This document shows positions 4,491 to 63,982 of a stretch of 64,000 bases of DNA, piece after piece. Numbering within the stretch: the stretch's first letter is position 1; every line of letters starts with the position of its first letter. The translations under genes and the position numbers were made by a program. The stretch lies in NCBI GenBank assembly GCA_036785375.1, contig JAWMAR010000012.1, forward strand, positions 930,001 to 994,000. Direction: 5' to 3'. Source of the stretch: Leucoraja ocellata. Taxonomy: Eukaryota. The notes under the pieces were generated by a model. That model made no database searches. It was not told the DNA's origin and saw nothing but the letters and a program-made list of their open reading frames with translations.

Positions 4491-4494
4491 CGGA

Positions 4495-7725: not shown

Positions 7726-8211
7726 GGTCAGTGGGAGTCAGGAGAATTAAAGTGGCATGAAACAGAGAAAAATAAATAGTGTTAATGATTTAGAGCAAGG
7801 AACTGTCATCAGAAGGAAAGGAAACAAATAAACTAAGTGCCAGAGGAACCCAGCAGGTCTGTCTGCATGTGTGGAGGGAAATTAACTGATGGTGTTTTGG
7901 GTCGGGGCCCAACTTCAGAGTTGTGTTCATTTCCATCTCCAGATGCTGCCTGACCTGTGAGTTCCTCCAGCACTTTGTTTATGCTCAAGATTCCAGCATA
8001 CGCAGTATCTTGTGCCTTGAGAACAGAACACATTTTATTTTAAATTGCAGATGGAGAAGATAAAGGGAATCTCTCTTACAGAGTAAGACCAAGGTCACTC
8101 CTGCAGAATGAACACAGGTAATCTGCAAAGCAGTAACCTAAAGAGCCTTTGCTTTCCCCAGAGTACATGAGAACAAACCAGGAAGTTGCGATGTGAGCAA
8201 TCCTATTGAAT

Positions 8212-10768: not shown

Positions 10769-10769
10769 A

Positions 10770-11365
10770 AATGCTGCAAGGGAGAAACATGTATCTGATT
10801 ACATGACGCTGACGGAAATTGTGAAGAGTGATTAGTTGAATCCAGAGGTGGAACGTGAGGATCTCCTTACTCCACTTTAACTCCACTTTCCATTTCCACA
10901 CTGACCTTTCTATCCTGAGCCTCCTCGATTGGCAGAGTGAGGCCCAGCACAAATTGGAGGAACAGCACCTCATATTTCGCTTGGGCAGCTTACCCTCCAA
11001 CGGTCTGTATATTGACCTCTAACTTCAAGTAACCCTTGCTTTCCCTCTCTCCCCAATCCTCCCCCTTTCTAGTTCTCCAACCAGTCTGACAGTCCCCCTG
11101 ATTAAATGTTATCTCTATATGCTTCGTTGTCAACTTCTCCTAGCTAACAATGATCTATTCTACATTTTCCTTGAACTACATCTCCTTTGATGTCTCTTTT
11201 TCACACCTTACCTTTCATTATCTCCCTCTGCCCTGACTCTGTCTGACGAAGGGTCTTCACCTGAAATGTCACCCATTCCTTCTGTCCAGAGATGCTGCCC
11301 GTCCCGCTGAGTTACTCCAGCATTTTGTGTCTATCTTTGGTGTAAACCTGCAGTTCTTTCCAAGA
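10770..11365 (+). mobile_element. Penelope-like element 3' portion with hammerhead motif
   Basis: QSEAQHKLEEQHLIFRLGSL. ctgacga-agggtcttcacct-gaaa-tgtc at 11243-11270. Confidence 0.88.
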
Positions 11366-21507: not shown

Positions 21508-22040
21508 TATGTGCAATGAGATTTGGTATGCAGCTTCCATCCGATGTCATAACTTAAACAACGAATAAAATTTAGATTTAGATACCCCGAGAAACATGAT
21601 TTATAAAAAGAACAGTAAAACAGTAAAACAGTCAAAACAGTCTAAAGTGCAAATGTGTCTGTGTCGGGTCGATATGTGACGTGACCATCCGAGGGAGACA
21701 GTTCTTGGTGGTGGGGGGCACTCAGCAGGGCCGGTTCAGATCAGCTATAGCTCTGGAGATGAAGCTGTTCCTGAGTCTGGAGGTGCGGGCGTAGAAGGCC
21801 TTGTAACGTCTGCCGGAAGGTAGGAGTTCGAACATTCCATTACAAGGGTGTGAGGAGTCTTTGTGGATGCTGACGGCCTTCCTGAGGCACCGTGTGTAGT
21901 AGATGCCCTCCAAGGCTGGTAGCTGTGTCCCAATAATCTTCTGTGGACGACGCGCTGAAGAGCTCTCCTCTCCGCCTCCGTGCAACTGAGATACCACACA
22001 GAACTGCCATATGTTAGTCTGCTCTCTGTGGTGCAGTGGT
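21508..22040 (-). mobile_element. Rex1/Babar LINE 3' end
   Basis: WYLSCTEAERRALQRVV, HPCNGMFELLPSGRRYK, TSRLRNSF. Confidence 0.88.
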
Positions 22041-24139
22041 AGAATGGCTTCTGCTATAGTTTTAGATGATGTGAAGGTTAGGATGGAGTTTAAACATAAC
22101 ACAGACCAGATGGGAAATACTTCGCTGCGGGAACACCACAGTATTTTTTAGTGCCCAACAAAAATAAATAACTGTGAGAGAAATCAATCTAAGGTATCAC
22201 TTCTGATGAATCACAAAGGGCCTTTAAACCTCTCACTTGGGCCAATGTATACTATTAGTTTGGGGTAATCTACTCATTTTCGATAGCAACCAGTGTTATT
22301 TGCTGGTGGCCTCTGCCTGTGGTTGGAAAAGTGGTCCCTAATTTTCTCTTCCCAAGCCCATAATAACAAAGAATTTGGCCTCAAATCCTCAATTCATTTC
22401 TACATAGAGAGCAAAAGAATAAACAAACAGATCGGTCAGTCCTTTGTGCTGAATGTGATATTTGGGAATGTGAAGGCGGATTGATAAACTCAGCTAAATA
22501 AGCTAGCATAATTTTGAATTTATTAATTACAAGTTAGCATCAGTTTCTTTGTGCATGTATTTATGAGTGGGACAATAAAGCATCTTAGAGAGCCAGGATC
22601 TGTGGCCAGCAGAAAGCTGCCCACTCCTGCACTAGATTTTGAATTCATTGTTAACTCTCCAGACCACATTAACTTGGAGTATATTTGTTTACACAGCTCG
22701 ATGGTGACAGAAACAAGGCCTCCCATAACATGATAAGATCGCATGGGGATAAAAGGGGATGGGGTGCCAAGCAGGAAGAGTGAATGCCAACAGTGGCCTG
22801 ACCCTGGAATTTTGAAGCTGTTGAAGCAGCAAATACTGAAAGTTTCTGTTTCCATTTGAAAAGATTCAGATATTATTTAAAACAGTTGAAACAGAAAGCA
22901 AATTAAATTTATTGAACAACATTTAAATCGTAAAACAGTAATAACAATTAAAAGCATCTAAGTACTTAATGAAATCCCTCACAGCCTTTTTATTCCACCA
23001 AAGTGAATAATGATGGCAGGAAACTTGGGGAGGAGATGAAAAGTATTAAAGAAAATCTACCAGCAGATTCTGCACAGCAAGTGATAGGAATGGCCTCTTT
23101 ATAGCTGTACACTCCTAAACAGGATTGATAAACCTGGTACAGAGATTAGTCAAAGAAATAATGACTAATAGATTACTATAGCCATTGTGCGTTTACTTAG
23201 TTTGGGCACAGATGGATATTACAGCATTGAATATGAACCATAGATTTGTGAATGAGCAATTCATTGAAATATCCAGTATGTCAGACTTGGTACGACAGTA
23301 ATAATCTCACTTTACATCTGAGTGCAATGGGATAAAGCCTCCCACGTTAGTGGTAAGGAAGTGCGGCTTTATTAAATGCTGTCTCAAGGATGACAGAGTA
23401 GAGTAAGTGCCTGGGCAAATGAGTGTAAATGTACTGTTTGGAGGGGAGTAGGAGGGTTCTTCAAGTGTCCTTGGCAATTCGCAGATTCCTTACTTTTTTT
23501 GCAATTTTTTACAAAGTGCAAATAACTGGAATGAGTAAAATTGAAACACGAGCAGCTTCTGTTACAGCCAGTCAATCTGCAATATTAGGTTACACAAAAA
23601 AGCTGGAGAAACTCAGCGGGTGCAGCAGCATCTATGGAGCGAAGGAAATAGGCAACGTTTCGGGCCGAAACCCTAGTTTAGTAATGAAGCATTTTCAAAA
23701 TCTAGTGTGTCCAAGGACAGATAATCCTTTAGCAAATAAGAAAATCTGCATAATTGTGTTGTACACAGAAAAGCTCCACATGTGAACAAACCAATTGTTT
23801 TTTGATCAAAGTAAAAATGCAACTAATTAGATTAAAGAAGCAAATCAACATGATCTTGCGTTCAAAGACAATCTGATCTTTGTGTAAATGGAACTATACA
23901 ACAAGGCTGACAACTCAAGATAAAAATGTTTCCCTACATTTTTACAATAAAAAGCTGAGTAATATTAAGCTGAATTAAGTTACATTTTATATTATCTTCA
24001 ATTGAATTAATTTTTAATCATTTATTCAATTTTCTTGGCCAAAAGATTGAAGCATACATATTATTTATTGAGTATCCTTCCTTGGCCTATAAAATTGTGA
24101 GATGTCTTGCGTCATTTCAGAAGATAGTGGGAAAAGTCT

Positions 24140-24470: not shown

Positions 24471-24574
24471 ACTCAACCAAATTCCATTTAGATAAGATTC
24501 ACATAAAGCTTGGATAAAGATAAGGATGTTTGATTTCCTTCTCTGAAAATGTTGTATGTTTTTTTGTTCTTTCC

Positions 24575-24705
24575 AAGATAGACACAAAATGCTGGAATAA
24601 CTCAGCGGGACAGGAAGCATCTCTGGATAGAAGGAATGGGTGATGTTTAGGGTCGTGAACCTTCCTCAGAGTGGTCTGAAGAAATGTCTCGACCCGTAAT
24701 GTCAG
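24575..24705. mobile_element. Back-to-back PLE ends with apex at the hammerhead 5' edge (right arm truncated)
   Basis: gatgtttagggtcgtgaaccttcctcaga-gtgg-tctgaagaaatgtctcgacccgtaatgtca. Confidence 0.75.
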
Positions 24706-24707
24706 GG

Positions 24708-24899
24708 TCATATCAAGGTCGCCAAAAGATTTTGAACATTTTAAAATCCAGCGGCGACAAAAAAACTGCGACACTTGAGGAAACATCGTGCGTCACTACG
24801 TCATCACGCCGCGTCATGCCGCAACTTTTTCAGTGACCTGATATGTCAGTCAATTGTGCTGGCAGTCGCCGCAAAAAATCGGCAAGTGGGACAGGCCCT
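24708..24899. mobile_element. Harbinger MITE, right half
   Basis: Terminal aagtgggacaggccct followed by tta; same TIR family as 40100, 58002 and 62165. Confidence 0.75.
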
Positions 24900-24904
24900 T
24901 TAAG

Positions 24905-25360: not shown

Positions 25361-28029
25361 ATCATATGTTGCTCTATTTGTAGCCACCCATTGCTTTTAT
25401 GCGGCCACTTATCATCATCACCAGAAAATAAGTTATCAGTTTCCATGTGCATATCTTTCTCAGTGAGTTCAGCCTCACTGCCACCTCCTTGCCGGTCTCT
25501 AATTCAACATCACCAAATGTAATCCCTTTCAAGACTTCACTGTGCATTTATTTTTCTTCCCTCCTTTTAGTTCTCTCTGAACTATTATCATTATTCATTA
25601 CTTTTCTACTTAAGTGTCTTTGTTAAGTTTTAGTTAATAAAGATCTTGTGAAGTTCCCTGGAAGATCAGATGGTGCTGAGGATATCATGACACCTTCCTG
25701 TGAGAATACTGAAGATGCAATTCTATTGTTTTATTTTTTCTATGCCTATCAAGCAAGGCCACAGAAAATACTTCAAACAGCAGGTATTTACTTGTACTTC
25801 TTTCAATTTAGAGCAATGTATTCACTGTTCATAATGGTGTCTTCTTTACATTGTAGAAACTGATGATGTCTTTGCAGAAAGCCTCACATTCAGTCCAAAA
25901 GGCATTGCCCTGAACCTCCAGTTCCCTATTCTTTATTTTACACTCTCACTTTCACTCTGACCACTGCACTCATCTTGCTACATTGTTCCAACAAAATTCA
26001 TCCCAACTACAAGGAACAGCAATACCTTCTGACAAGACACGATACAGCTTTCTAGAAACAGCTGTGTGTTCAACAAATTCAGATAATCAACATTTTCAGC
26101 AATAGTATTTCAGATTTCCAGAATTCTCCACATTCCTTAGATAAATGTAAAATATACTCAATTTGTGTCTTCTCCACAGGGACCTTTGATTTTTGCTGTT
26201 TGAACCAGTCGGTTCGCTGCCACTTTTAATCTTTGCTTCCTTAAAGGGCATGGCACCTTTACTGGTGAGCATGAGTGGAAAATAACTTGGGGCAGAGAAC
26301 TGAATAAAAAAACCGCTAGTCTATTTCGTCAGACCCATTTATCCACTCGTTATATTCTTAAAACACAGATAAGTATATGTTCATTCAGATTTAAATACAG
26401 TACCAAGCACAACATGTTTCTGCCAGGGGCAAAGCAGTTTGGCTAATGATTGTTATTTTTCTAATACCATGCATCAATCTGCTATCCTCTTTAATAAAGT
26501 TTTAGTCTGGTTTAATTGAACTTCACTTCCTGCCTGAACACATTAAATCGAGCTTTAAATGTTAAATTATCACAGATGGCAATCAAAAATACTGTGACAC
26601 AAATCACTGGAACACTGCTCAGTAAACCAGCTGGAACATAATCACCAGGTTCCTGCTCTTAGACAGTAATACCAACATTTTATTGGGCATTGTTATACTA
26701 CAACATGTGCCTTGAGGTTACCTGATGAATCAATCATTGGAGTTGAAATTCCAAAACATTGAACTAATCAATTATACATGAATACATTGTTCACAGCATA
26801 CCCTACTTTTACTATGATTTGGCTGAACCAAGATTCCTCTGCCTCAGGCATCCTTAAGAGCCTCCAGCGACTGAATTCTGTAAAAGAGACAAGAAGCAGT
26901 GAAGCAAGAGCCTGAGGAGAAATGAGTATACAGTTTTCAATGATTAATTTTAACTGTGCCCATCAATGCAAAGACAATTTAAGCATACATTCCTTTACAG
27001 TACATGCAAGCTTTCTTTGCATTCTGGTCCTGAATGTTAGGAAAGTATTTTCAGCACATATAATGACCGGCACTGTAATGATGTGAGCACCTACAAAATA
27101 ATAAATTGGTAATGACACAGAATTATTTGCATCAAGACCATCCTCAAAAAGTTTACATGGACACAAATATTGTTATATTGGTACATTGTAACAATAATAG
27201 GTGAACATAATCACAATTTCTCAGATTGTTCTGGTGTTCAAATTATTTTTCATAATATGATTGGATCTGTTGATTTACTCTATTGTGATTCCCTTCTACT
27301 TTTGCTATGGAATCATAAATGATTGCAGCACAGCTGGAAGTAATTTAACCGATTATGTCCACATTAGCTCTCCAACAGCACATCTCTCCAGTTCTGACCC
27401 AGCCCTCTCTCCATACACTTGCCAATTTTTCTTTACCACCGTCAATCTAAATGTTTATTCTCATGCTAATTCTCTTTATCTCAATCCAGAGATGATAAAC
27501 CCTCAAATCCTCCACCAAATGGAACAGCTTCTATTATCCATGTGTAAAATCTATAAAATCCCTCATTTTATAGAATTCTATCACATTTTCCATCATCTTT
27601 TCTTTACTGAAGAAAACTACCCTGGACTGTATCCTTGTTCTGTGACACCTTATCAAAAAGCCTTCCAGAAGTTCAAGTACATAAAATTCGCATCAGCATC
27701 AACTGTAACCCCATCAAAATATTTTATCAAATTAATTAAACCTGATTTGTGCTGAATAAATCCATGCTCGTTTGCCTTAATTCATTCATTTTGCTCCAGG
27801 TAAGTATTAATCCTGTAAAACAAGTGACTGCAGATGCTATAATCTGGAATAAAACAACATACTGCTGCAGGAACTCGCTGTGTTTCCCTCCCTGTGGAGG
27901 GAAACTAATTAATGTCTGGAGTAAGTCCTGATGCAATGTCTCGACCCGAAACATCAGCAATTCCTTTCTTTCTGCAAATGCTGCTCAACCCATTGAGTTC
28001 CTCCAACATTAGTCCTGTCCTGGATCAAT

Positions 28030-29290
28030 ATTTCTTGATTGTGATTTTTGAGGAGGTGACAAAGGGTAGGGTGGTTGTCTACATGTACTTGATAAGGCTC
28101 TTGACAAGCTTCCTCATGGTAAATTGATCCAGATGATTAAGATGCATGGGTTAGGATGCATGGGATCCATGACAATTTGATTGTTTGGATTCAGAACTAC
28201 CCTACCTATAGATGACAGAGGGTAGCAGTGGAAGAGTGTTATTCAGGCTGGAGATCTGTGACCAGAGGTGTTCTGCAGGATTCAATGCTTGGACTTCTGT
28301 TTTTGAAATATATATATTGATGACTTGGGTTAAAATGTAGATGGGTTGGTTAATACTTTTGTGAATTATAACAACATTGGTAGAGTTGCAGAGAGTGAAG
28401 AGGACTGTCAAAGCATACAGCAGGATACAGATCAGTTCCAGAAAACAAAGCAGATGGAGATTAATCCAGGGAAGTGTGAGATGTTGCATGTTGGGAAGTC
28501 AAATGTAAAGCGAAAGTATACAATTAATGGCAAGACCTTTAACAGTGTTGATATACATAGGATCTTAGCATCAAAGTCCATAGCATGGCATTGAGTATAA
28601 AAGTCAGGAAATCATGTTGCAGCATTATAAATCTTTTGGCAAAGCCGGAATTGAAGTATAGTGTGCAGCACTGATCATCCTATTACAAGAAGAATGTGGA
28701 GGCTTTGAAGAGGGTGGAGAAGAGGTTTACCAGGATGCCGACTGGATTAGAGCTATAAGACGGTGTTGGACAAACCTGAATTGTTATCTCTGCAGCATTG
28801 GACACTGAGGGGAGACCTGATAGAAGTTTGTAAGATTATGAGAGGCATAGATATGTTAGGTAGAAGAAGAAGACAGTCTGAAGAAGGGTCCCGACTTGAA
28901 ACGTCGCCTATCTATTTTCTCCAGAGATGTTGCCTGACCTGCTGAATTACTCCAGCATTGGTGTCTATCTAGGGTAGACAGAACCTTTTTCTCTGAACCA
29001 ATTTCACTGGAGGATTTTCTCTGAACCAAACACTAGAGGATTTTAAAGTCAGAGGGTCAAAGTTTAAAAGAGATGTGTGGGGCAAGTTGATTTTTATTTA
29101 GAGAGTGGATGTTATCTGGAATGTGCTGCCAGGGGTGGTGGTGGAAGCAGATATGATACTAGTGTTTCAGATAGACACATAGATATGCAAAGGGAGGGAT
29201 GTGGATCATATTCAGGCAGAAGGAATTGGTTTACTTTGACATCATGTTCAACATAAGGCCTGTTCCTGTGTGGTACTGTTCAATGTTTCT
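28030..29290 (+). mobile_element. Old CR1 LINE fragment with a nested PLE end (about 28860-28970)
   Basis: FEEVTK, NPGKCEMLH and LRGDLIEV motifs. Hammerhead motif at 28878-28905. Confidence 0.8.
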
Positions 29291-31180: not shown

Positions 31181-32807
31181 CTAGATTAAGTGGGACCCAT
31201 TGGGTTCCATGTTCACATGGAAGGGCTGGTCCCCCAATGCAATATTCCATCTCTCCACCAATTCCAATATTGGTGGCCAGTGGAGGGGGAGGGGGGGGGG
31301 GGGGCTTTGTGGAGCTCTAGTATGGGCTGAAGGGACTAGTTTATGGAGGGCTAGTATGAACATTGTGAGCCGAATGGATTCCTCGGCTGGCAGCTCAGTC
31401 ACTCAGGCCTGGTGGGCTGGCAGCTCAGTCACTTGGGCTTGGTGGGCTGGCAGCTCAGTCCTCAGGCCTGATGGGCTGGCATCTCCGAAACTGCCAGAAA
31501 TTCAGCCGAAAACAGGTGAGAGACTCTGTGAGAGCAAAGGGGAGAGGGTGGAGAACCAATTTTACATATTTTTCATCTTTTTCTGCAGATCACAGCAATG
31601 AAGAAGGAAAGTCTATCCTGGCCTGGACCTCACAGGGAGCCAATGAAGGGAGGGAGAAAAGATAATAGGGTAAGCTTTAATACTTGCAGGGGGAATACTT
31701 ACTGGTGGACTGAAGGTACTCCTCCTGGGCTAGTAGAGGCCTGATGGGCCAAATGGGCTCTTTTTGAAAAGAATCTGTGAAATCTCAGTGAAAAGCACTT
31801 TTTCTGGACTTTTCCTGGCCTGGCACGGGCCTATTGGGCCAAACTGCTCCTCCTGGGCTGATATGGGCATTTTGGGCAAAAGAGGCTGGTTTCTCAGCTA
31901 ATAGAGGCCTTATGGGCCGAAATTAGTGATTTCAGGCAGGGCAAACAACGCATTTAATTTCATTTCAATTTCAAGCACAGGGCAGGCCAATCAATTCATT
32001 TCATTTCCATTTCCATTTCCATTGCAGTTTCAAGCACAGGGCAGGCCAAACAACTCATTGCATGTTCAATTCATTTCGAATTCCATTGCAGTTTCAAGCA
32101 CAGGTCAGGCCTAACAGCTCATTGCATTTGTATTTTGTTTCCATTTCCATTGCAGTTTCAAGCACAGGGCAGGCCACACAGCTCATTGCTTTTTCATTTC
32201 ATTTCCATTTCCATTGCAGTTTCAAGCACAGGGCAGATCAAACAGCTCATTGCATTTTCAATTCATTTCCATCTCCATTGCAGTTTCAAGCACAGGGAAG
32301 GCCAAACATCTCAAAGCATTTTCATTTTATTTCCATGTTTCCATTTCCATTGCAGTTTCAAGCACAGGGCAGGCCAAATACCTCATTTCATTTTCATTAA
32401 GGGCTAACAAATCATTTATTGCAAGTACATTGCAGACTTACAGTTCAGTTACAGCTTAGAATCACAGTTCTGACCTCTCCCTCGCGATCTTCCAGAGTGA
32501 CCGGCTCATGTCCAGGCATACGGGGATTTATAGTCCTGCCCCCCCCCCCCCCCGCCCCCGGAAGGGGCGTTACCCTCATCGTGGTGATTGACAGGCGAGA
32601 GGACCAATCAGCTGATCTCAAGATTTTTTTTTAAACTCAAAACTTTTTTTATTTTTCATCGAACGGACAAATCTTCAGGGCTGCCTCAGCAGAGAAGGAC
32701 TGTGAGTAAGATGGCCAAAAATCATAGCGATATATGGTCGCGTTTTTTTCTAAAATCAATATATAGCCCAGACACAAAGTGATCAAGATGAGACTTTTAG
32801 ATATAGA
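31181..32807 (-). mobile_element. Non-autonomous Helitron, 1627 bp
   Basis: Minus strand reads A|TCTATATCTAAAAG...GGAACCCAATGGGTCCC (hairpin)-acttaat-CTAG|T. No TSD. Confidence 0.85.
31930..32400. repeat. Minisatellite, about 64-bp unit, about 7 copies, inside the Helitron
   Basis: Recurring ccattgcagtttcaagcacagggcaggcc.aac..ctcattgcat plus (atttc)n. A separate 30-bp x3 repeat lies at 31385-31480. Confidence 0.95.
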
Positions 32808-33105: not shown

Positions 33106-33689
33106 TGTGAATATGACTGTAATCATATATAATAATTTATAATTATACTATATAAAAATAATATAATTATGATTGTGTTTTTTGAATGAGACTGCCATAG
33201 AGGTCTGGTTGCTGAACCTGCCTAATTAACGGATGAGGGCAGTTCCTGTGGGTTCCCCTGTTTACTGAACCCCACTGATTGCCAGTGTGCAGAGTGGGGT
33301 TCACGGCCAAATTTGGACTGCAGCAGTGCCAGGTTGGGGGAAGGCTAAGACATCTTCCACTGACAGGAAAATGCCTAACCCTAACACTAACCTGCTCCCT
33401 TCCAGAGCTGCCTTTGGCTGGAGCTGGAGCCGCATTGGGACTGGCTGTGGGCTTCGTACGTGTGGCCCTGCAGCGCATCCACCTCGGCCAGCATGCCCTT
33501 CTCGATCATCGTGGTGATGATGGTGGGGAGTAGCACTGCCCTGCATGCCGGCCGGGCCACCTTTAGCACCACCATAGCGCTGGCTCCGTCAGTCCGCCCG
33601 CTCGCTCGCTGCAACACCGGCCTCCCGAAAAGCCCAACCGACCCCTCGCAGCACCCAGTGGCAGTCTGACCACTCGCAGCACCAACGGG

Positions 33690-34440
33690 CACCCCGGCCA
33701 CTCTCACCATCCACTGGCGGCCCGGCCATTCTCACGACCCACCAGCGGACCGACCACTCTCACCATCCACCGGCGGCTGCGATTGATACGTGTAGTAACT
33801 AACAAGTATGTTGGATAAAACGTGGTCAATATCAGCTTCCAAAATTTCACGTTCCCTACCATCATCAACCTCGGGGTCTACCGATTCCCACCCTTCATTC
33901 CCACCCATCGGGATAGAGCTGTACAGGGACGACAATCTCCCTGACCACAGACTGAAACATTGATTGCAAGGAGCTGGTTGCAACTGCAGAGCCCACACAG
34001 AATATTAGTAAACCTTCATTAAATAACATGTGGAACAATGCAGCTTAATTGGAATTAGCAGTTACGGTAAATGTTGGAAGCCAGCGGAGGTACTGCCAGT
34101 CAGACGAGAGCAGGAGAGATTAAGACAGTGTATAATCCATAGCACCTCAGTGTACAATTGCATAATATATACTAAATAACAGGGCTGACAGACCTTGGCT
34201 GGAAACATGGGGCTCACCAAAATTGTTCCCAAGTGGGCCTCGCAACTCCTAAGGCCGGCCCGGCCACTCTCACGACCCACCGGCGGCCCGGCCACTCTCA
34301 CCGCCTACCGGCGGCACGACAGCCGACCGATCCTCCACAGCATCCATCGGCCTACCTACAAGCCCGACCGACAGACTGACCGACCGACCGACTGACACTG
34401 ACCCTGACCCTGACACTAACCCTAATCCTAACCCTAGCTC
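33690..34440. repeat. GC-rich ~28-bp repeats in two blocks, followed by (GACC)n and degenerate (CCCTAA/CCCTGA)n
   Basis: cggccactctcacc/gacccaccggcggcc at 33693-33778 and 34255-34315. ctgaccctgaccctgacactaaccctaatcctaaccct at about 34392-34436. Confidence 0.85.
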
Positions 34441-35619
34441 TACATTTGTTATTAATCATTTTTATTTAGCAGTTCACATCATAACTTTATAAAGATGAAT
34501 CAATTGAAAAACAGAATGATCAGCAAGGTGAGCATTACCTTTATTCCTTAGAAATCTGTTTATTGGTTTGATGTAATGAGAAGGCAGCCATGATCCCAGG
34601 GTCCTCGCTGCCTAGCGACCATAAAACAAAGCACGGGATTGATCAATGTGCATCCGACCTCAATGTCAAACGTTCATTGATTGGACAATTCCTACTCGGA
34701 AAATTGGAAGTTTTTCTCATATTTAATAAAAAATGTGCAGGTTTTGGTCTTGTTGAGTTTCAGGTATGATTTATATAATATTTTTACACAATATTGTACA
34801 CAATATTGTAAAAATCCAGGTAGTTCCGTGAGTTTGGTCACAAACTTAAACTAAAAACCGCCTCGGCCCACAGAACCAAACAAACGTTTGATTGGATATC
34901 CATCCTGAAGTTCAGCAGAGAGCTGTAGAAGTACACATTAAACAGCTTGACAGATAATACTACCTTCAAGTCAAAGATGAAAATTATCTCTAATTGTATC
35001 AGTAATATTTTGACAATTAAGCATGTTGTGCCATTCAGACTAAACAAAACCTTGCCTTGTTGTTTTAATTAGCTTGATAAATCTGAGAATTTGAGATGAA
35101 CATTAATATCTCCAAACAAAAATCAAAATCTGAGGCTGCTAGTCTTCTGAAGTATGAACAGAAAATGTTGATAATACTCAGCAGATCCAGCAATGTCTAG
35201 AGTATGGGAAAAGTGGTTAATTTTTCAGATCCTTCATGACAAGTTGTGTGACATGACAAGTTCTGACAAAAGGTCAGGACAAAACCTAAAATGTTATCTG
35301 AGTTTCTTTCCACATATACCACCTGACCCCTTGAGTATTTCCAATGTTTCTGTTTTTATTTTACTTTAGAGTTTGACTTTAAAGTTTGACTTTGGTAACT
35401 TGAATGTTTCCAAAGAATTGGAAATGTGCTTGAATTCTAAGAATAAATTATCATTCAATTTTAACCTGTCATCAAGACTTCTTTTAAAATTGCATTTTAA
35501 ATCAATATTCTTTCCTCTTTGATCAAGCTTACTTGGATTCTTGACACTGGTATTTTGCCCCTCAATCCAAATTCTATACACAAGTTTATCAATGTATGTA
35601 GACAAAAGTGTGAATGAAC

Positions 35620-36360
35620 TATATAATTGCAGGTAGATAAAAATGCTGGAGAAACTCAGCAGTTGAGGCAGCATCTAAGGAGTGAAGGAAATAGGCGATG
35701 TTTTGGGTCGAGACCCTTCTTCAGACTGAAAATGCTGGAGAAACTCAGCAGTTGAGGCAGCATCTAAGGAGTGAAGGAAATAGGCGATGTTTTGGGTCGA
35801 GACCCTTCTTCAGACTGATGTGAGGGTGGCGGGGGGGGGTGGGAAGAAGAAAGGAAGAAGCGGAGACAGTGGGCTGTGGGAGAGCTGGGAAGGGGAGGGG
35901 AAAGAAGGAGAAAGCAGGGACTACCTGAAATTGGAGGTCAATGTTCATCTGCTGGGATGTAAACTACCCAAGCAAAATATGCGGTGCTGCTCCTCCAATT
36001 TACGGTGGACCTCACTCTGGCCACGGAGGAGGCCCAGCACAGAAAGGTCGGAAGGAGTTGAAGTGCTGAGCCACCGGGAGATCAGGTTGGTTATTGCGAA
36101 CCGAGCGGAGGTGTTGGGCAAAGCAATCACCAAGCCTACGCTTGATCTCACCAATGTAGAGCAGTTGACACCTAGAGCATCAGATGCAATAGATGAGGTT
36201 GGAAGAGATGCACCTGGAAAGACTGCTTGGGTCCTTGAATGAAATCAAGTGGGGAGGTAAAGCGACAAGTGTAGCATTTCCTGCGGTTGCAAGGGAAAGT
36301 GCCAGGAGAGGGGGTGGTTTGGGTGGGAAGGGACAAATTGACCAGGGTGTTACGGAGGGT
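35620..36360 (-). mobile_element. Penelope-like element 3' part with an 89-bp tandem duplication of the hammerhead segment
   Basis: CISSNLIYCI, QSEVHRKLEEQHRIFCLGSLHP. 35640-35728 is repeated at 35729-35817. Confidence 0.88.
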
Positions 36361-36754: not shown

Positions 36755-38045
36755 AGATTCAGATTCAGAAAACTTTATTGTCTGTCGTAACAGAAAATCT
36801 TCTTTGATGTGGCTCAACATACAGACAGGATAATGTACTGATAAGCAATCATACAACACAGATTTCTGCGAGCACACACAGTGTGTATCGATCTTAAAAG
36901 CAAATATAAGATTAAAAACTAAAAATAGACAAGATAAAAGTTGTGGATACGTGTAAAGTGACAATGCATCAGGGTTAATTTGTCCATTGTTCATTTTTTT
37001 ATTTAAGCTGTTTATGGCAATGGGTACGAATGAGTTTTTGTGGATGTTTTTCTTGGATAGGGGGACTTTATATCAGCGGCCTGATGGCAGAAGTTGGAAA
37101 GACTTGTGCAGGGGGTGGGTGGGATCCTGTGTAATGAGATTGGCTTTCCTTTTAACTGCCTGGGTGTGGAGTACTGATAATTGATTTTGAGTTTTACCAG
37201 TTATTTTGCTTGCCTGATTGATGATCCGGGAAAACTTTGATTTGTCTTTGACAGAGGTGAGGGTGAACCAGGATGTGATGTTAAAGGTGAGTACAGATTC
37301 TATAAGTGATTTATAGACAGCTGTTAAAATGTTGTGTCTGACATCAAAGCTCCTGAGTTTCCTCAGCAGGAACAGGTGTTGCTGTGCCTTCTTGTACACA
37401 GAGTCTGGTGTCTAAAGGCCTCTACCTGCTCAACTGTCTGCCCATTCAGCCTCAGAGGTTCAAAGAGAGGTTGGGGGGAAGATGTCCGCCTCCCCCCACA
37501 ACACAACTCCTTGGTCTTGGAGATGTTAAGCTCCAGGGAGCTCTCTTTGATCCACAGCATCAGGCTGTTGACCTGCTGATAGTAGGCAGCCAGAGAAGTG
37601 TGATCCTTGATGTGGGCCACCAGGGCCATATCGTCTGCATACTTAAAAAGGGAAATGTCACTGTTATTGTTTGTTATGTTGTTTGTGTAGATGGAAAATA
37701 AAATTGGTGATAAGACACAACCCTGGGGGACACCAGTGTTTAAAATCATGTTCTTGGATTTAAAACCATTTACCACCACATGCTGAGGCCGGTCCTGCAG
37801 AAAGTCTTTTATCCACAGGATAAGTGATAGTTAACTTGTAGATCCAGAAGGCGGTTGCAGAGGGTAACCGTGTTAACTGTGTTAAAAGCTGAAGAAAAGT
37901 CCATAAATAAAATCTGTGTGTGGGGGTGTGGGGAGTCCAGCTGTCTGCTAACTGTGTCCAGGAGAGTCAAACAGGCATCCTCCACCCCACGCCTTGCCTT
38001 ATAGGCAAACTGGAGTGGGTCAAGCCTGTCAAGAAGGATTGTACA
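36755..38045 (-). mobile_element. Rex1/Babar LINE RT fragment (pseudogenised)
   Basis: LDPLQFAY..RRGVEDA, LFMDFSSAFNT, TGVPQGCVLSPILFSIYTN, KYADD, LNISKTKE, FQLLPSGR; (tctgaa)n tail. Confidence 0.95.
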
Positions 38046-39284
38046 TCTTTGCATCCTCGATTCTATCAGCACTGGAGATTTAGTAGCACCCAAAATGACA
38101 TTTCTTGGATAAAACCTGAAGTATTTCTTCTTTCTTTTGCAGCCACCCATTTGGGCAATTGCGGTGTCATCTTCAACTTCCATGCATCTTTCACTTTAAA
38201 CTTTAAAGTTTCCACTTCTTCAATATATCAGCTGAATGGCTCAACATGTCCTTTGGTATTGTGACATCTTGTACAATGCACACTTCAATTCATGATAGCT
38301 TCTAACAAATGGGATTCCATGCTGGTTATGGGACAATGAAAAACATTTTTCCCTCAAACTCACGAAAGAATTGCCAAGTAGCAATCATAAATGTCCTTCA
38401 ATTCTGAAGAAAATTGACCATACTCTTTGCCAATTTATAATCTCTACACATAACACATAGCATAAAAATATTCAAAAAGGGTCGAACTCAAACTATTTGC
38501 AGGTTGAGTCTAAATTATTAATGCAAATTATTGCAGGCCTCTGATATTGCTATAAAGCTGCAATTGAATCTGTTGACTAACTTGGCTTACAGTATGAACA
38601 GACAAATATAAAGCTAGAATAGAAAGAAGCCCTGTGCTAAAAGATACACTACACCAACATATGCAAGCAGATCAGCAAGGTTCCAAAACTCGGTTGCTGG
38701 ACTAGATTAATAGTTGTTGTTTATCGATGGGCTACTTGTATCTCATTGTAACCAGGGAATGGTGCAGTGAATCTTTATGCACAGACTTTCTATTTGCTAT
38801 ATATCCATATGCCTATTCATGCTGTGACCCTGATTGGACAGGGAAATCATGGAGCATTTTCCTTCTCCAAAGAAATACTATTGTATAAATGCAGCATATT
38901 CGACTTGCTCTAAAGTCTTGAAGATTCAACGGGTCAACAGCTTGTGTACTGGCTTGCAAAATTAAACACCATCTCTTGATATATGCAGGCTGTGTGGTTT
39001 GTTATGGATTCATAGCCCAAAGCCTAAGTTATTGTTTCAGAGGCACAAATACAAATCCCATTTTGGTTGTGAATATTTTATAAAGCCTGCATCTGAAATG
39101 TAAACTGGGTTGTTACAAAAACCCATCTGGTTCACCAATACCCTCCAGGGAAGGAAATTTGTTTCTTGTAGATCCTGTCTGTGTTACCCCAGATTTAACA
39201 ACAAGCTTGATTCCATGCTGCCTTCTACAAAGAAATAGAACCAGCAATACACCTTGCAGCCCTTTGTAGCTATTCTCATTCAGT

Positions 39285-39600: not shown

Positions 39601-40499
39601 ACACCTCCTCTCCAGGAGTTCATCTGGTGAACCTACATTGAACTCAATCTACTGGAGAAATTCTGCAAGCAAGCAGCATTTTGCTGGGGAGGGTGAGAGG
39701 GGTGAAGGATTGGTTGATGTTTCAAGTTGAAATGACAAAAAATATATTTTTGCCCTGCCCCCACCCCATGCCCATTGATGTTGCTCCACCCATTGAGTTT
39801 CTCCACCAGATATTTTGTTACTCAAAATTCCACCATATGCAGTCTCTTGTCTTTCCATTCTTATGAAATGCCTTGGTTTTTTTTCTTAATCTGTCAGTGA
39901 TATTGACTTCCTATCCTTGCCTTCACCCTACAGAAACACATTGGCCCTGAACTCCCACTAATTCATTTTTAAGACCCTCCCATTTCTGCAAATGGAGATT
40001 AACCTACAAATAGCTGCTCCATCTATATTTGCCAGGCACTGTCTAATGTTATTGAAATCGGCCTTTCCTCAGGTCAGATATAGTTTTGGACTATCCTTAA
40101 GTCCCTGTCCCACTTGGGCGACCTCCACCGTGACCTCTGGCAACCTTAAGCGACTTTTTTTTAAATTCAAGGTCGCGGTGACCTACGACCTCCTACGACC
40201 TTCCACGACCTCCTACGACCATGTTGAAGGCCTCCCTCGACTATGAAGAAGACCTCCTTCGACCTCCTTCAACCATTTACGTTTTAAGGATGGTCTCTGG
40301 CAAATTGGTCCATGAATGAGCACGACCCCCTTCCACCTCAGAGGACCACACCGAAAACCAACAATGACCAGTGACGAGTGCCTACAGCTCAAATGATCAC
40401 CTGATAAAATGATGTCATGTCTGCATTTCTTTCTCACTAAAAAATGCCTCCCAGGTATTTTTTTAATCATTCTGAACCATGCAAGCAAGGAACTAGTTT

Positions 40500-43084: not shown

Positions 43085-43295
43085 AAAAAGGACACGAAGT
43101 GCTGGAGTAATTTAGCAGCATCTCTGGAGAACATAGATAGGTGATGTTTCGTCGAGAACCCTCTTCAGGCCAATTGTCCTGACCCAAAACGTTACCTATC
43201 CATGTTCTCCAGAGATGCTGCTTGACCCGCTGAGTGACTCCAGCACTTTGTGTATTTGTTTGTAAACCAGCATCTGTAGTTCTTTGTTTCTACAA
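43085..43295. mobile_element. Palindromic back-to-back PLE ends
   Basis: gtgctggagtaa...gcagcatctctggagaacatagataggtgatgttt / aaacgttacctatccatgttctccagagatgctgc...actccagcac. Confidence 0.85.
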
Positions 43296-43569: not shown

Positions 43570-44990
43570 AATCCCATTATCTTTTTTTCCCACATTCTTC
43601 TAGGTGTCTTTTACCTTGTGAACAGGCTCATTATTCCAAAACCCGTGTGTTTTTATAAAACGTGGCATTGACTATTGACTCCATGTATGTCAATCAAGTC
43701 TTAATCTGTGTTACCTGATTGCCGTGGAGTTTGCTGCAAAGATTCGCACAATCCAGTGACCTTCAGTGAAGAGAGGTTATTTTTTAACATTCCATGGATG
43801 GTTTATTCTTTAATTATACCACTGGGCCTTGAGCTCAGCTATACAAACCCAGTCTAACTTTCATATTAACCCAATAGTCCCTGTGTAAATAAACTTGTCC
43901 TATACTGGACATCTCTTTTAAACTTTCCCCATCTGACATTAAACCTATGGCTTCTATTCTTCGACATTTCCATTCTGAGAAAGAGGTTCTGACGGTCTCC
44001 ACGGATCTATGCCTCTCATAATTATATATACTTCTATCATATCTCCCAACAACCACTGATGGTCCACAGACAACAATCAGTTTGGTCAACCTCTCCTTAC
44101 AGCTAATACCTTCTAATTCAGGCAACATTCTGGTAAATCTCTTCTGCATCCTTTTTTCTGTGATGAGGGGACCAAAACTTCACACAATACTCCTGATGCA
44201 GGTTAACCTCATTTTCATAAAGTTGTAATACTGACTCTTGCACTCAATGCCTCGACTGATGAAGGCAAACATACCAGACACATGGTTCAGGTCGACACAA
44301 AATGCTGGAGTAACTCAGCGGGTGAGGCAGCATCTATGGAGAGAAGGAATTGGCGACGTTTCGGGTCGAGTCCCTTCTTCTGATCCCACAGAGGGGGAGC
44401 AGTGAGATAGGATGTTGCTAAACTCTCGTCGGAGAGAGGAGAACTTCTTCAAAGTAGACATTCCTTGAGGAGATTTTGCAGTGGAGTGAACTAAATGTTT
44501 CAGAAAGAACTGCAGATGCTGGTAAAATCGAAGGTAGACATAAAATGCTGGAGTAACTCAGGGAATTATTCCAGCATTTTGTGTTTACCCTCGATTTTAC
44601 CAGCATCTGCAGTTCTTTCTTAAACACATGGTTCAGGTCATCAGGTTCTAGAAATGTATTACCTTTCAGTCCCATTAATTTATCCAATATTTTGCTACTT
44701 TCTTTTAGCTTCCCAAACCTGTTGTTCTCTATAATTTCTAAAAGATTTTCAGCATCATTATCTGTATTGACAGACAGCAAATATTTAATTTCTCTGCCTT
44801 TTTCTTATTCTCCAGTTTTATTCCTCACGTCTCAGTCTAAAAGCAACCCATGTCAACATTTGTTAAACATTCTCTCTCTACACATGCTAGTTTCCCTTTC
44901 CATTTCAATGCCTTTGTCCTCCTTTGCTGAATTCTGAGTTTTTCCCAACCTTCCGTCTTACTGCTCCACTGGCAAGATCGTAAATCTGAA
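43570..44990 (-). mobile_element. Old CR1 fragments with a nested PLE palindrome
   Basis: MQKRFTRMLPELEGISCKERL (43835-44149) and KLMGLKGNTFLEPDDL (44640-44700). Confidence 0.75.
44294..44623. mobile_element. Composite PLE-end insertion with 16-bp TSD
   Basis: ACACATGGTTCAGGTC at 44278-44293 and 44624-44639. Antisense hammerhead at 44353-44382. Palindrome at about 44500-44623. Confidence 0.85.
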
Positions 44991-50364: not shown

Positions 50365-52490
50365 CTTTTTTGAGAACTGGGGCATCACTGAAAATGGCAG
50401 CATTATTTGGCCATTTCTAATTTCCCTTGGGAAAGTAGTGGTGAGTGACTTTCTTGAACTGCAACAATCCTTCCGGTGAAGGGTCTTCCAAGGTGCAAAG
50501 AGGATTCCTGGACATGGCTGTAACAATAAAGGTGGACCAGCAATATATTTTCAAGTGAAGTGCAATTTGGAGGGAAACCTGTAGGTGGTGGTGTTCCCTT
50601 GAACTTACTGTCCTTGTCCTTCAGGCAATTTGTGAGTTAGTGTACGAATATTTTATGCAAGAAACTGCAGTGCATTTTATAAATGACACCCACTGCAGCC
50701 ATTGCGCACCAGTTGTATAGAAACTGGATGTTTAGATTTATTAATGCAATGCCAAATCAAGTGACCTGCTTTGTCCTGGATGATACCTTGATAGCTGTTG
50801 GAGCAACACTCATCCTGGCAAGTGGAAAGTATTCCATATTTCCAGATTTGTGTCTTGTAGGGCTTGGGCATTCAGGAGACAAGTCACTCGCCACAGGATC
50901 CTCAATATCTGACCTGCTTTTTTAGCCACAGCACTTACATGTCAAGCCCTATTGATATTATGATCAATGACCCCCATAACTTTGATGGAGGTGATTTCAA
51001 CTATGATATTGCCAGTGTATGTCAAGGTAGGTGGTTAGATAAAGTAGTTGTTCGGCACATGTGTGACATGAAAATTACTGCATTACTGCATTTATCAGCC
51101 CACATTGTCCAAGTCTTGCTATATGCTATTGACTCGTCACTTGCTGAGCAATTTGAAATGCAATTGAATATTGTGTAGTCATCAGAAAATATCCCCACTT
51201 TTGACTGTCATAGAAGAAATGTCATTCATGAAGCCACTCGAGATGGCTGAGTTAAAGAAAGTGTTCTGAAGAACTTGTGCTGTAATATCCTGAGGTTTGG
51301 AAGATTGACTTTTGTGCAAAGTATAACTCCAACCATTGGAGTGTTTTCTTATCGATACACATTCACGACAATTTTACAAGGGCATTTTGATGCCACACTT
51401 GGTCAAAGCAGTTTACATAATTGGCATCCAATCAACCACCCTCAACATTCAATCTCTCCACTACTGGAAATACATTGCTGTTCAATCATCATTGTTGCAC
51501 CTAAATCCTAGAAATGCCTTCCAACAGCATGTGTAAGAAAAAATTGCAGATGCTGGTTAACACGAAGATAGACACAAAATTCTGGAGTAACTCAGCAGGT
51601 CAGGCAGCATCTCTGGAGAAAAGAATAGGTGACGTTTCGGGTCGAGACCCTTATTCAGACTGTGTCTGAAGAAGGGTTTCAACCCGAAACATCATCCATT
51701 CCTATTCTCCAGAGATGCTGCCTGACTTGCTGAATTACTCCAGCATTTTGTGTCTATATTCTCAACAGCATGTTGGAAGTACCTTCACCAGAAAGATTGT
51801 AGCTATTCAAGAAAGCTGCTCAACATCACTTTCTGAAGGACAATTAGGGATGGTCGTTAACACTGACTTTCCTTGATGGCCAGATACTAAGAAAATGAAT
51901 TAAACATACACAATAACGTGTTGGTGTAAGGACTGGAGTAAAGGTCAATACATTGAACATTGACATTCTGGAAGAATTAAAAAAGTGTATCACCTGTCCA
52001 TTCCCTCCACAGAGGCTGCTTGACTTGCTGATTTCCTCCAGCACTTTGTGGTTTGCTTAAGATTTCACCACCTGCAGTTTCTTGTGTCTTAAAAAGCAGG
52101 GATTGGACAGTGAAAACAGATTTTGCTGTTAATATCTAGGGCAGTCACTCTTAACCTCCCTCAACTCTGGTAATGCAGCTCTTTGACAATGTTTGGACCC
52201 AGACATTGATGAGTTCTAGAGATGAGTAGCCTGTCAAAACCTAAACTGGATGTGCATGAACAACTTATTACTGAGCAAGTGCTGCTAAACAGCACTGCTG
52301 ACAACATATTCCCTCATTTTGATGTTGATTGAGAGTGGACTAATTGAGCAATAATTAGCCAAATTGGATTTGTCCTGCGTTTTATAGATAGGACAAAGCT
52401 GGGCAGTTTTCCACATCGTCAGCAGGTGCCAGAGTTGTAACTGTACTGGAACAGCTTACCAAGAGGCGACACTAGTTCTGGACATAGGTA
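50365..52490. mobile_element. Cluster of ancient CR1-type fragments (minus 50365-51440, plus 51465-51905, minus 52090-52490)
   Basis: 3' end motif ttcaagaa.gc.gctca.ca.cac.tt.t.aagg.caattagg occurs in both orientations. Confidence 0.65.
51533..51762. mobile_element. Palindromic back-to-back PLE ends with two opposed hammerhead motifs and 11-bp TSD
   Basis: gacgtttcgggtcgagacccttattcagac-tgt-gtctgaagaagggtttcaacccgaaacatc. TSD CAACAGCATGT at 51522-51532 and 51763-51773. Confidence 0.92.
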
Positions 52491-56064: not shown

Positions 56065-56262
56065 CAAAAGAGACTGCAGATGTTGGAATTTGGAATACAA
56101 AACAAATTGCTGGAGGAACTCAGCAGGTCAGGCAGCTTCTGTGGAGAAAATGGACAGACAAAGTTTCAGGTTGGGATCCTTGTTCACTTTGAAACATCGT
56201 TCATCCATTTCTTTCACAGATGCTGCCCGACTCGCTGAGTTCCTCCAGCAGTTTGTTTTTTA
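56065..56262. mobile_element. Palindromic back-to-back PLE ends, older subfamily
   Basis: aaacaaattgctggaggaactcagcaggtcaggcagc / gctgcccgactcgctgagttcctccagcagtttgttt. Confidence 0.85.
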
Positions 56263-56847
56263 CTCAAATGACCTGATACTGATGTCTTCCTTTGAAAGCA
56301 CTCCTCCAATTACAATGATGAAGTCCAAAGACTAAGGGAACAGAAACATAAAATCAGGTTGCAAGGCCAGTATAAGCATCTGCTGTAATATGATTCCTAA
56401 TCATATCATATCAACTGGGGAATTTAAATTCATTGGTTAAATATGTCAGGAAATAAAATGCTCATATCATCAGTGATGATCAGGAAACTGCAAATTGCCA
56501 TAAAAACCTGGTCCAATGTTCCTCATGGAAAGAATCTGTCATCTCACGAATGAAGGGATAATAAAATAGGATACATGTAGATGATTGTTGATAATTGGCA
56601 GAGACTCAGCTCAATGACTCTACACCTCCTCAGTTCAAGGCAATTTAAGATTGCCAATGAATGCCATAGTGTGAACAAATAAACACATTTCCATATCTCC
56701 TTTGGTGTTTTCATTTGGGGTGACAAAGATCACACCAATGGAACTATTAAGGAAATCATCCACTGTAATTTCTTTTTTCCAGTAAATCTCATGATATTTC
56801 TTTTGCATTTCTGGTCAACTGCATTGCGTAGTAAAAACCATTATTTT

Positions 56848-56982
56848 CTGAAGTATGAAGAAGGGTCTCGACACGAAATGTCATCTATTCCTTTTCTCCA
56901 GAGATGCTGCCTGAACAGCTGAGTTACTCCAGCCTTTTGTGCCTACCTTCAGTTTAAACCAGCATCTGCACTTCCTCCCTAC
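56848..56982 (+). mobile_element. PLE end with degenerate hammerhead motif
   Basis: tgaagaagggtctcgacacgaaatgtc...ccagcatctgcacttcc. Confidence 0.85.
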
Positions 56983-57615
56983 GCCATTACTTTCAACTAA
57001 GTTGTGAATTCCATTGATGAAATGTAATGAGCTGGAGGAATAATTATTTGACAGTGGAAACAGAGCCTTTACATATTCTTAAAGTAAAGATAGGCAGAGT
57101 CTTAGCAATCAAGGAAGAGAACGATGACTCGGGGTGGACTGGAATGCAGAGGTGTGGTCGTCTGATCAGCCATAATCTTATTAAAATAGCAGTGCAGGCT
57201 TGAGTAGCTGAATGGCCTATCCCTGCTCCTAATCTGCTGGTATGGTATCTGCTGGTATGTTATCTATTAAAGGAGCTGTGAGAAGATACAGGGCAGTATC
57301 AGCAAACTTTACGCTGTGATCCCACTTGATATCCTAAATCAACAACAGAAATCAGGGGCACGGTATTACAGGACCATGTGGGGAAATCTGTCAGCTTTTC
57401 CCACCATACACCACGTAAAGCACAGCACTCTTATATTTCCGGCCATGAACATGCAAGTCTGGGAAAGTGGAAGTTGCTGTAAGCTGCTTACAGCTGGACA
57501 GACAATGTACTCCCTGTGGAGTTCATTGTGAGAGTATGACCTCAGCCATATTGCTCGATAGTTAATTTAAAAATTCACAACAATATTCTGTGCAGTTCAA
57601 GGAGAAGCAACTTAC

Positions 57616-58001: not shown

Positions 58002-58695
58002 AGGGCCTGTCCCACTTACGTGTCCTTGGCACGCAAATTACGCTACCTCATGGTCGCGTTGAAGCGTACGGGCATCGTATGGCCGCACGGGGCCAGTCCC
58101 ACTTAGAAGCGCAGAGGGGTATGTAGTTGTGCGCGACATCGCGTGGGGCTCCGAAATGTTAGTAGTGAACAAAATCTTTGCGCGCCAACGGCCTGTCACG
58201 GAACTGCCAGCCAAAGTGGGACAGGCCTAAGACCCTGGGGCGACGCAATGTCTCACTTTCAACAGCAGCAGAAGCAGGCAAACAATCGCCAAACTCGGCA
58301 TGGGGTTCACGGCCGTTAAGGTGTGGATCCGCCCCCGCTTATACTCCCAGAGCGGGGCCAAGAAAATTGAAGATAGATACAAAATGCAAGAGTAACTCAG
58401 CGGGACCGACAGCATCTCTGGAGAGAAGCAATGGGTGACGTTTCGGGTCAAGACCCTTTTTTCACACTGAAGAAGAATTTCGACATGAAACGTCACCCAT
58501 TGCTTCTCTCCAGAGATGCTGCCGGTCCCGCTGAGTTATTCCAGCTTTGTGTCCATCTTCAAATGACGTCACGCACTCCAGACGGCTGTGCGTACGCATG
58601 TAATCGCGCCCGATCTTCACTCGACCGTCTCGGCTCAACGCGACCACGAGGACGCGTAATTTGCATGTCAAGGACACGTAAGTGGGACAGACCCT
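58002..58695. mobile_element. Harbinger MITE with long TIRs, hosting a PLE palindrome (58368-58562)
   Basis: AGGGCCTGTCCCACTTACGTGTCCTTG / CAAGGACACGTAAGTGGGACAGACCCT, TSD TAA/TAA. Confidence 0.92.
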
Positions 58696-63009: not shown

Positions 63010-63982
63010 CTGCATCATAATAACAATACCCAACACAAGCTAGAGGAACAGCATCCCATATTCCATCTGAGCTGGTAGCAGTCTGCTGAACTCAATATCA
63101 AATCCCACAACTTCAAACAACTCACTTACTGGGGACCCCGCGCCGCTGTGAAGGTAGTGGGATCCGCGTGAGGGGGGCTGCCGAGAGAAATCCAGTGGGG
63201 GGGTCACCAAGAATGAAGATGGGGATCCGGCTGGGGTCTGCTGAGAAGGAAGAGGGACCTGACAGGGGGTTGCAAAGATCGAACAAGGGACCCGTCAGGG
63301 CACTGCCAAGAATGAGGTGCGGACCCGGCAGGGTCTAGCTCGCTGATGCGAGCAGAATATAAGACTGTTTGATGAACGTTTTGTAATTTTGTCAGCACCA
63401 GAAACATGGTGACTATTTATGTACTGCCTAAGTGAGGTCTGCTGTGTGATTTTACCTATTTGCATGGGAACACAAAAAATGTCACTGTACCTCGGGTACA
63501 TGTGACAATAATATAATTGAACCATTGAATTGCTGGAATTTATTTAGTTTGCTGTTGACAGCTTTCTCTTTCAGCATATCTAACCTATTGTGCATGTCCC
63601 ACAACCTTACATTACACAACATTTGCATTATTTTGTTTGTGTTCTCACCATGTAAATACCCTCTGGCCATAACTTTTATTTGTTATCTCCTTCTCTAACT
63701 GCACCCATTAAATCATCCACTGGATGACGACAACAGTTTATCGCCACACCGCCTCCTATCTCACCATATCAGAGAAATTTCCTTTGTCCTATCATCACTC
63801 CTCCACCCTCGTTTCAACTTAAAATGAATTCATAATCTCTCTTCTTCTGAAGAAGAAGGGTCTCGACCCGAAATGTCACCCATTCCTTCTATCCAGAGAT
63901 GCTGCCTGTCCCGCTGAGTTACTTCAGCTTTTTGTGTCTATCTTCGGTGCAAACCAGCATCTGCAGTTCCTTCCTGCACATA
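63010..63982 (+). mobile_element. PLE fragments with an intervening GC-rich retroposon (about 63130-63520) and a terminal PLE end with hammerhead motif
   Basis: QHKLEEQHPIFHLS at 63030-63075. ctgaagaagaagggtctcgacccgaaatgtc at 63847-63877. Confidence 0.75.

Follow-up and report, generated by a model that had tools for sequence, protein, structure and literature searches.

In LINE-1 twin priming, the second target strand also acts as a primer on the RNA, which produces an inversion within one target site duplication (TSD); there is little overlap between the segments, and the position of the second site varies. Inserted units of EN+ Penelope-like elements (PLEs), as described in PMC3846280 and PMC8557442, share several features with the insertions analyzed here: a head-to-head inverted copy, a 30–40-nt tail at one end, an enclosing TSD, a palindrome at the inverted junction and partial tandem copies. 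The palindrome layout is thus already published (Arkhipova 2013; Craig 2021) and does not define a new element class. How PLE integration is finished, and why it yields inverted repeats with a one-sided tail, is an open question in the papers cited. In vitro work on Poseidon, a PLE of Anolis carolinensis, showed nicking and extension of both strands, using uncleaved RNA and without need of the hammerhead (Frangieh et al. 2024, PMC11167929); the main text of that paper draws no connection between this extension and insertions with head-to-head copies. The motif studied here resembles the minimal hammerheads described from PLEs (Cervera and de la Pena 2014, PMC4209133) in its core, in an unpaired base before stem II and in palindromic positions 15.2-16.2; dual hammerhead motifs lying 100–700 bp apart on opposite strands are described in the same paper for Schistosoma. 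Our literature search, which covered listings and lay outside Repbase, Dfam and most subscription papers, found no paper on this family in cartilaginous fish and none that invokes twin priming to explain the inverted repeats of PLEs.

We analyzed a 64,000-nt window of the Leucoraja ocellata genome. Positions within the repeat are given as columns of a 139-column profile built from sampled copies, in which the A of TCAGTC is 4, the C of CTGANGA is 7, the predicted hammerhead cut follows 34, the short end lies at ~99 and the tail end at ~137 (tail, ~38 nt). In the focal palindrome, exact 11-bp TSDs at 51522–51532 and 51763–51773 enclose two opposed copies of a PLE leader. The long arm (51533–51662, minus strand) runs from model position 3–4 to the tail end (HMM 3–138, E 3e-40), with its tail at ~51533–51565, and the short arm (51664–51762, plus strand) runs from position 5 to ~103 with the tail absent. 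At the apex joint (51661–51664) one arm ends at 3–4 and the partner begins at 5, with 1–2 extra bases between them. Each arm contains a minimal hammerhead motif: at 51631–51658 on the minus strand, with one core base (G8) altered, and at 51666–51693 on the plus strand. By folding prediction the focal RNA is a single hairpin (−156.9 kcal/mol, z −17.6, equaled by 0/200 shuffles) in which stem II has a pair probability of 0.000 on both strands, so that the core is predicted to be unable to fold within it and the palindromic RNA would not form an active hammerhead. An earlier reading made from the sequence alone had proposed that either strand yields a hairpin with one sense ribozyme motif; this applies to few pairs in the sample described below, where the hammerhead core is intact in both arms of 5/122 pairs and in one arm of 27/122, and the unpaired stem II of the focal hairpin speaks against a working ribozyme. 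The motif itself is present as that reading had noted, recognized by its core bases, with no hammerhead match at the gathering score in an Rfam scan.

The same reading had listed ten insertions in the window as an antisense PLE end joined to a sense one, and a profile HMM search found an antisense then a sense piece of one leader at 10/10 of these loci (E 3e-40 to 3.5e-3), three of them weakly. Arm-to-arm alignment scores exceeded the best of 40 shuffles at all ten, by a narrow margin at 24575, 27825 and 35130. Exact TSDs are found at two loci, the 11-bp focal repeat and a 16-bp repeat at 44278–44293 and 44624–44639, in agreement with the claim that each of these entered as a single unit; a search at the remaining 8/10 loci found none. 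At least one arm reaches the core region (model position ≤7) at 8/10 loci, and both arms reach it at 3/10 (24672, 51660, 58465). The arms of the window palindromes are asymmetric, one with the tail and the other ending ~35–40 nt short. Head-to-head pairs are located at 43086–43288 (short 4–100, long 14–132), 56067–56263 (long 6–130, short 27–99) and 58364–58563 (two short arms, apex near-symmetric), with an older pair at 7827–8011 (short 5–97, long 47–129) and degraded pairs at 27815–28010, 35130–35349 and 39625–39848. The locus at 24572–24704 consists of a short arm (5–104) and a sense piece of merely ~32 nt (24673–24704, model 4–35); the GC-richer unrelated sequence that follows (24705–24900) was found to hold neither a remaining arm nor a TSD partner. 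Within the 16-bp TSD lies a composite insertion of three PLE pieces (44278–44639), in the order short arm (6–100), same-strand leader, tail and ORF start (72–248), and inverted tail arm (73–137). Its 112-nt spacer is the PLE's own 5′UTR/ORF start (model 72–248), and its outer ends are one short and one tailed, as in simple pairs.

Non-palindromic copies are also present in the window, including a solo leader with tail at 63852–63981 (plus strand) and further solo leaders at 56851–56984, 28874–28976 and 23589–23680. A decayed leader at 35640–35818 lies in an exact 89-bp tandem duplication with private changes common to both units, which is either a later duplication or an assembly artefact. An inverted repeat unrelated to the PLE leader occupies 2–197 (95-nt arms, 91%); we take it to be an inverted duplicate of a LINE-type 3′ end and flank. 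Broken LINE-like RT frames, presumably CR1/L2-like, are found at 8780–11020, 20201–21070 (plus), 37073–38195 (minus) and 21722–22147 (minus), two copies being 91–92% identical, and tandem arrays of 64, 30 and 28 bp lie at 31957–32396, 31385–31485 and 33638–33776, respectively.

The PLE origin proposed for these repeats could be traced to its source. Two window copies, a 5′-truncated PLE at 35627–36260 (minus strand) and a copy at 3836–4560, extend upstream of the leader into a pyrimidine-rich 3′UTR and a GIY-YIG remnant. A protein search of the 3.44-Gb genome of the same species gave frames of up to 1246 aa among the matches listed, and 19 stretches picked for long frames revealed a tandem unit of 3985 bp whose ORF spans 1221–1235 aa, the copies being mostly 97–100% identical. 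Judged by these frames, intact PLE masters apparently exist in this genome. In a 1234-aa frame, Pfam matches to RVT_1 (718–887, E 1.4e-6) and GIY-YIG (1138–1172, E 0.013) both fall below the Pfam cut-offs, and RT and C-terminal GIY-YIG motifs are visible in the translation, the arrangement of a single-ORF EN+ PLE. Wherever a 5′ leader is joined to the ORF (7/7 copies), 3′ sequence lies upstream, consistent with partial tandems or pLTRs; TSD-defined ends peak at 99–100 and 136–137, as for the optional 30–40-nt tail of such elements; and the minimal hammerhead core bases are present in the master and in 37/244 arms. The arm corresponds to the ~135-nt segment between the PLE 3′UTR and the ATG, which lies 34 nt past the tail. 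Given this placement, the leader serves both as the 3′ end of the element and as its mRNA leader. A three-cysteine motif, spotted by eye, precedes GIY-YIG in the linker; such a motif is described in PMC8557442 as a feature of Neptune that is also found in Nematis, and it points to a placement of the source PLE with Neptune. In sequencing runs of a relative, reads 90–99% alike cover the PLE ORF on both strands. Tandem units of 200–370 bp, which comprise 3′UTR, leader and ORF start to 227–270 and are retrozyme-like with the downstream segment kept, occur at L246, L254, L258, L274, L276 and L279, with arrays on G000 C9, C13, C68, C205, C270 and C298.

We sampled 140 stretches of 10 kb (1.4 Mb) at preset places on large contigs only and identified 683 arm matches, 341 of which are singles. 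Neighbors ≤80 nt apart are head-to-head in 122 cases, tail-to-tail in 19 and direct in 57, and the excess of head-to-head over tail-to-tail neighbors indicates that pairing is not due to chance. At least one pair is present in 74/140 stretches, a density of ~87 pairs per Mb that extrapolates to ~300,000 head-to-head pairs genome-wide, a figure possibly inflated by duplicated loci in the assembly and by the sampling of large contigs alone. This large load of ~100-bp hairpins is predicted to give dsRNA wherever it is transcribed. Four sets of sampled stretches (L002/L003, L004/L005, L011/L026 and L023/L024) have near-identical flanks, marking duplicated segments or retained haplotypes. We also observed head-to-tail arrays of a 66-bp leader unit (model 27–93; L042:9247–9710, L086:5949–6197, L097, L161, L188, L190) and of a 33-bp unit (15–46; L188, L084).

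The pairs follow a rule in their outer ends. With 21/122 pairs omitted as too eroded to class, the 101 classifiable pairs divide into short+long (82), short+short (13) and long+long (6), where the frequencies among single copies (166 short, 146 long) would predict 50/29/22 (p 2e-9); the short+long rule is thus violated in 19/101. A TSD of ≥10 bp (mode 14–15 bp) encloses both arms of 45/82 short+long pairs, with no clear target preference at the ends of these 45 TSDs. In 50 of the 82 it is the short arm that extends further 5′, in 16 it is the long arm, and in 16 the two are level (p 3e-5). Arm lengths span 35 nt to 3 kb, and the long palindromes obey the same rule (L235, 2.3–2.4-kb arms; L232, 290 nt + 3 kb; L221). 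Most pairs overlap across 50–100 nt. Partner arms consisting of the tail only are found in 3 of the 122 pairs and beside 4/162 short singles (vs 0/162 control flanks). Both arms belong to the same subfamily cluster in 70/82 pairs (mean 33 and maximum 46 over 2000 shuffles), and the two arms of a pair average 85% identity vs 91% to the best unrelated arm. The share of arms in pairs shows no trend of pair loss with age over score quartiles (0.38/0.42/0.28/0.36).

Joints were scored in 76 pairs, with 46 low-score pairs left out. They comprise 27 overlaps, 2 blunt joints and 47 with inserted bases, and nearly all are distinct (71/76). One arm reaches position ≤8 in 49/76 pairs and both arms do so in 9, in line with the sequence-only observation that apexes lie near the 5′ side of CTGANGA. 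That reading had taken uniformly spread apexes without shared junctions as the mark of ordinary independent inversions; the apexes do cluster, and the joints nearly all differ. The commonest joint (5/76) lies on the natural near-palindrome TCAG-T-CTGA and recurs exactly in 587 copies of the young subfamily. The first 10 of these are all short+long, represent several sequence variants and have matching arms; the central base falls to the tail arm in 4 and to the short arm in 6 (4 vs 7 over all loci). Self-complementary stretches at or inside the hammerhead motif host 7/76 joints, 2/76 being centered on the stem II region.

Single copies share the 5′ boundary of the pairs, as 151/280 solos start at position ≤7. 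Among 92 solos, 69, 64 and 55 match the PLE at positions 6, 5 and 4, and 28 match at position 3. Exact copies of the young subfamily number 30,775 in the genome when counted to position 5 and 16,891 when counted to position 1, a ~45% drop that is partly due to mutation and to variants at positions 1–2. A survival curve of upstream extension (BLAST) is blurred by chance extension and is no basis for exact rates. We found no pile-up at the predicted ribozyme cut, with 2, 0 and 2 starts at 34, 35 and 36 among the 683 matches; ribozyme-cut RNA as the template was rejected on these counts. As a control we used 40 of 151 leader-to-ORF junction copies, whose copying began downstream of the leader, picked from the first 100 listed with inner array units avoided and including some duplicates or short tandem units. 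Fifteen of these stop at 9–133 and 25 get beyond position 8, none of which stops at 2–8 (0/25; p 4e-7 at a 45% rate, and 0.007 for 19 long copies at 25%). The 5′ stop is therefore not intrinsic to the sequence or its fold; it matches what would be expected of an RNA end, for templates whose priming lies within that leader. Four junctions in sense orientation lead from ORF-start positions 170–264 back to leader positions 6–9 (window 44384–44495, L047:46–82, L058:1860–1965, L249) and fit enzyme jumps at such an end.

No full-length copy starts at the proposed RNA start (0/25 junction copies, 0/7 leader-ORF copies), and long copies need another template, either multimeric or circular. Both a simple transcription start for every template and a strong-stop jump of the LTR type that succeeds at a constant rate predict full-length starts at 2–7 and were rejected on the same count (0/25). 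A cap-derived G is weakly enriched at position 3 (G/(A+T) 0.52 vs background 0.39), an excess too mild for us to accept. The stop site also resembles a 3′ splice site (pyrimidine tract, YAG), and the Drosophila Penelope intron is described as ending at hammerhead helix I (PMC4209133); we found no recurrent upstream exon in 92 solos and no donor in a donor-motif scan.

Taken together, the copy statistics favor an origin of the palindromes by twin-site double priming with a common 5′ stop, to which we assign a probability of about 0.62. As the TSDs suggest, staggered nicks by the GIY-YIG domain would yield two 3′ ends, and each nicked target strand would prime reverse transcription, one at ~99 and one at ~137; these ends are observed, and the priming is modeled on PMC11167929. 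Both primings would take place on a single RNA. The leading enzyme, which makes the short arm, would reach the RNA 5′ end, and the trailing enzyme, which makes the tail arm, would halt earlier. The cDNAs probably run off the RNA just upstream of the hammerhead core, where the RNA 5′ end may be a transcription start at the initiator-like TCAGTC. The cDNA ends, to judge from the observed joints, would be sealed by microhomology or short inserts, including at the TCAG-T-CTGA near-palindrome. Priming of one strand alone would give a solo copy. Because a short first cDNA offers no template for the tail, and a truncated long one none for positions 4–20, two primings are required for most pairs, unless a hairpin is trimmed afterwards. 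The palindromes formed separately as insertions of the autonomous PLE's leader and are likely dead on arrival: they are without the downstream segment that a related PLE needs in vitro, and are thus likely not recopied. The absence of a strand preference for either start site in vitro (PMC11167929) counts against a two-site model.

Self-priming is an unlikely alternative, in which a cDNA folds back on itself, perhaps with an antisense template and using the 5′ near-palindrome, and a staggered endonuclease cut at the open end of the hairpin then leaves a one-sided tail. PMC3846280 puts such a route forward for inverted pLTRs and PMC8557442 for the tail, and it would account for the 587 young copies of the TCAG-T-CTGA joint and for the subfamily concordance of the arms. 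A hairpin that is cut once synthesis has ended might also have either arm as its short one. Foldback of a first cDNA requires one arm to be a subset of the other, whereas in most pairs neither is, the short arm being fuller and the long arm tailed; the long arm is fuller in 16/82 pairs, which are compatible with foldback. Against it also stand the inserted bases at 47/76 joints between arms that often end tens of nucleotides apart, the fusion of position 1049 to 3795 in L232, the tail-only partner arms, the short ends that close ordinary single and full-length copies too, and the central base of the symmetric joint, found on the tail arm in 4/10 and the short arm in 6/10. Double priming could instead have used two separate RNAs held by a protein dimer, such as is predicted in PMC11167929. 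We consider this quite improbable as a replacement, as it alone explains neither the one-short-one-long ends nor the fuller short arm; it would allow complete arm overlap without strand displacement, and 12/82 pairs have arms in different clusters, although those discordant pairs that we inspected proved old and degraded. On the narrower choice of one RNA or two, the copy data fit either.

Both origins offered by the sequence-only reading fare worse. A switch point set by stalling of the reverse transcriptase at the hammerhead fold is very improbable: starts do cluster a few nucleotides 5′ of the core in all subfamilies, and the joints on self-complementary stretches, including the two centered on stem II, give the idea a small part, but solos start alike, 0/25 crossings from downstream stop there while ordinary truncation at 9–133 is seen in 15/40, the stop comes after the fold has already been copied, stem II is sparsely populated in folding models (0.02 in the master context) and the cut site has no pile-up. 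Ribozyme mutants, moreover, leave the insertion band size unchanged in PMC11167929. A discrete, strand-symmetric palindromic element copied whole from one or a few masters is largely refuted, and we give it almost no weight. One joint does recur and TSDs surround the whole unit; yet 71/76 joints are distinct, the one that recurs is shared by several subfamily variants and has both orientations, the arms are asymmetric, range from 35 nt to 3 kb and resemble the best unrelated arm more than each other (91% vs 85%), and the palindromes lack the ORF-start segment that the short tandem derivatives keep.

Twin-site double priming can be put in a more specific form, which we offer as a tentative one: a single PLE complex may prime both tail boundaries of one RNA leader, with the leading copy running off, the trailing one recopying, and long and tandem copies coming from a second, continuous class of template, multimeric or circular. 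If true, the palindromes would be an in vivo record of this process, and PLE inverted repeats and the one-sided tail would come from a single reaction. With apparently intact masters and ~300,000 minimal products in one genome, such models are open to test through copy counts and in the existing in vitro system.

Compared with the EN+ PLE units of PMC3846280 and PMC8557442, the arms here usually consist of the leader alone and occur at ~87 pairs per Mb; those papers favor self-priming with endonuclease resolution, whereas the arm asymmetry here favors two primings. As in LINE-1 twin priming, the inversion lies inside a single TSD, but here a constant ~38 nt separates the two sites and the arms usually overlap over their whole length, with ~7 tail-only cases. 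The helix I of our motif is 2 bp, unlike that of the PLE hammerheads in PMC4209133, and the motif is predicted to be unable to fold inside the palindrome. Poseidon (PMC11167929) likewise has two start sites flanking the tail and extends both strands; it differs in belonging to another clade by the linker motif, which is Neptune-like here, and in an ATG that lies inside the hammerhead rather than 34 nt after the tail. Non-LTR retrozymes (bioRxiv 10.64898/2026.07.22.740005) are, like the palindromes, short non-coding hammerhead repeats from vertebrate PLE pLTRs, but they form head-to-tail tandems where the pairs here are head-to-head, and it is the 200–370-bp tandem derivatives in the same genome that fit the retrozyme class better than the palindromes do.
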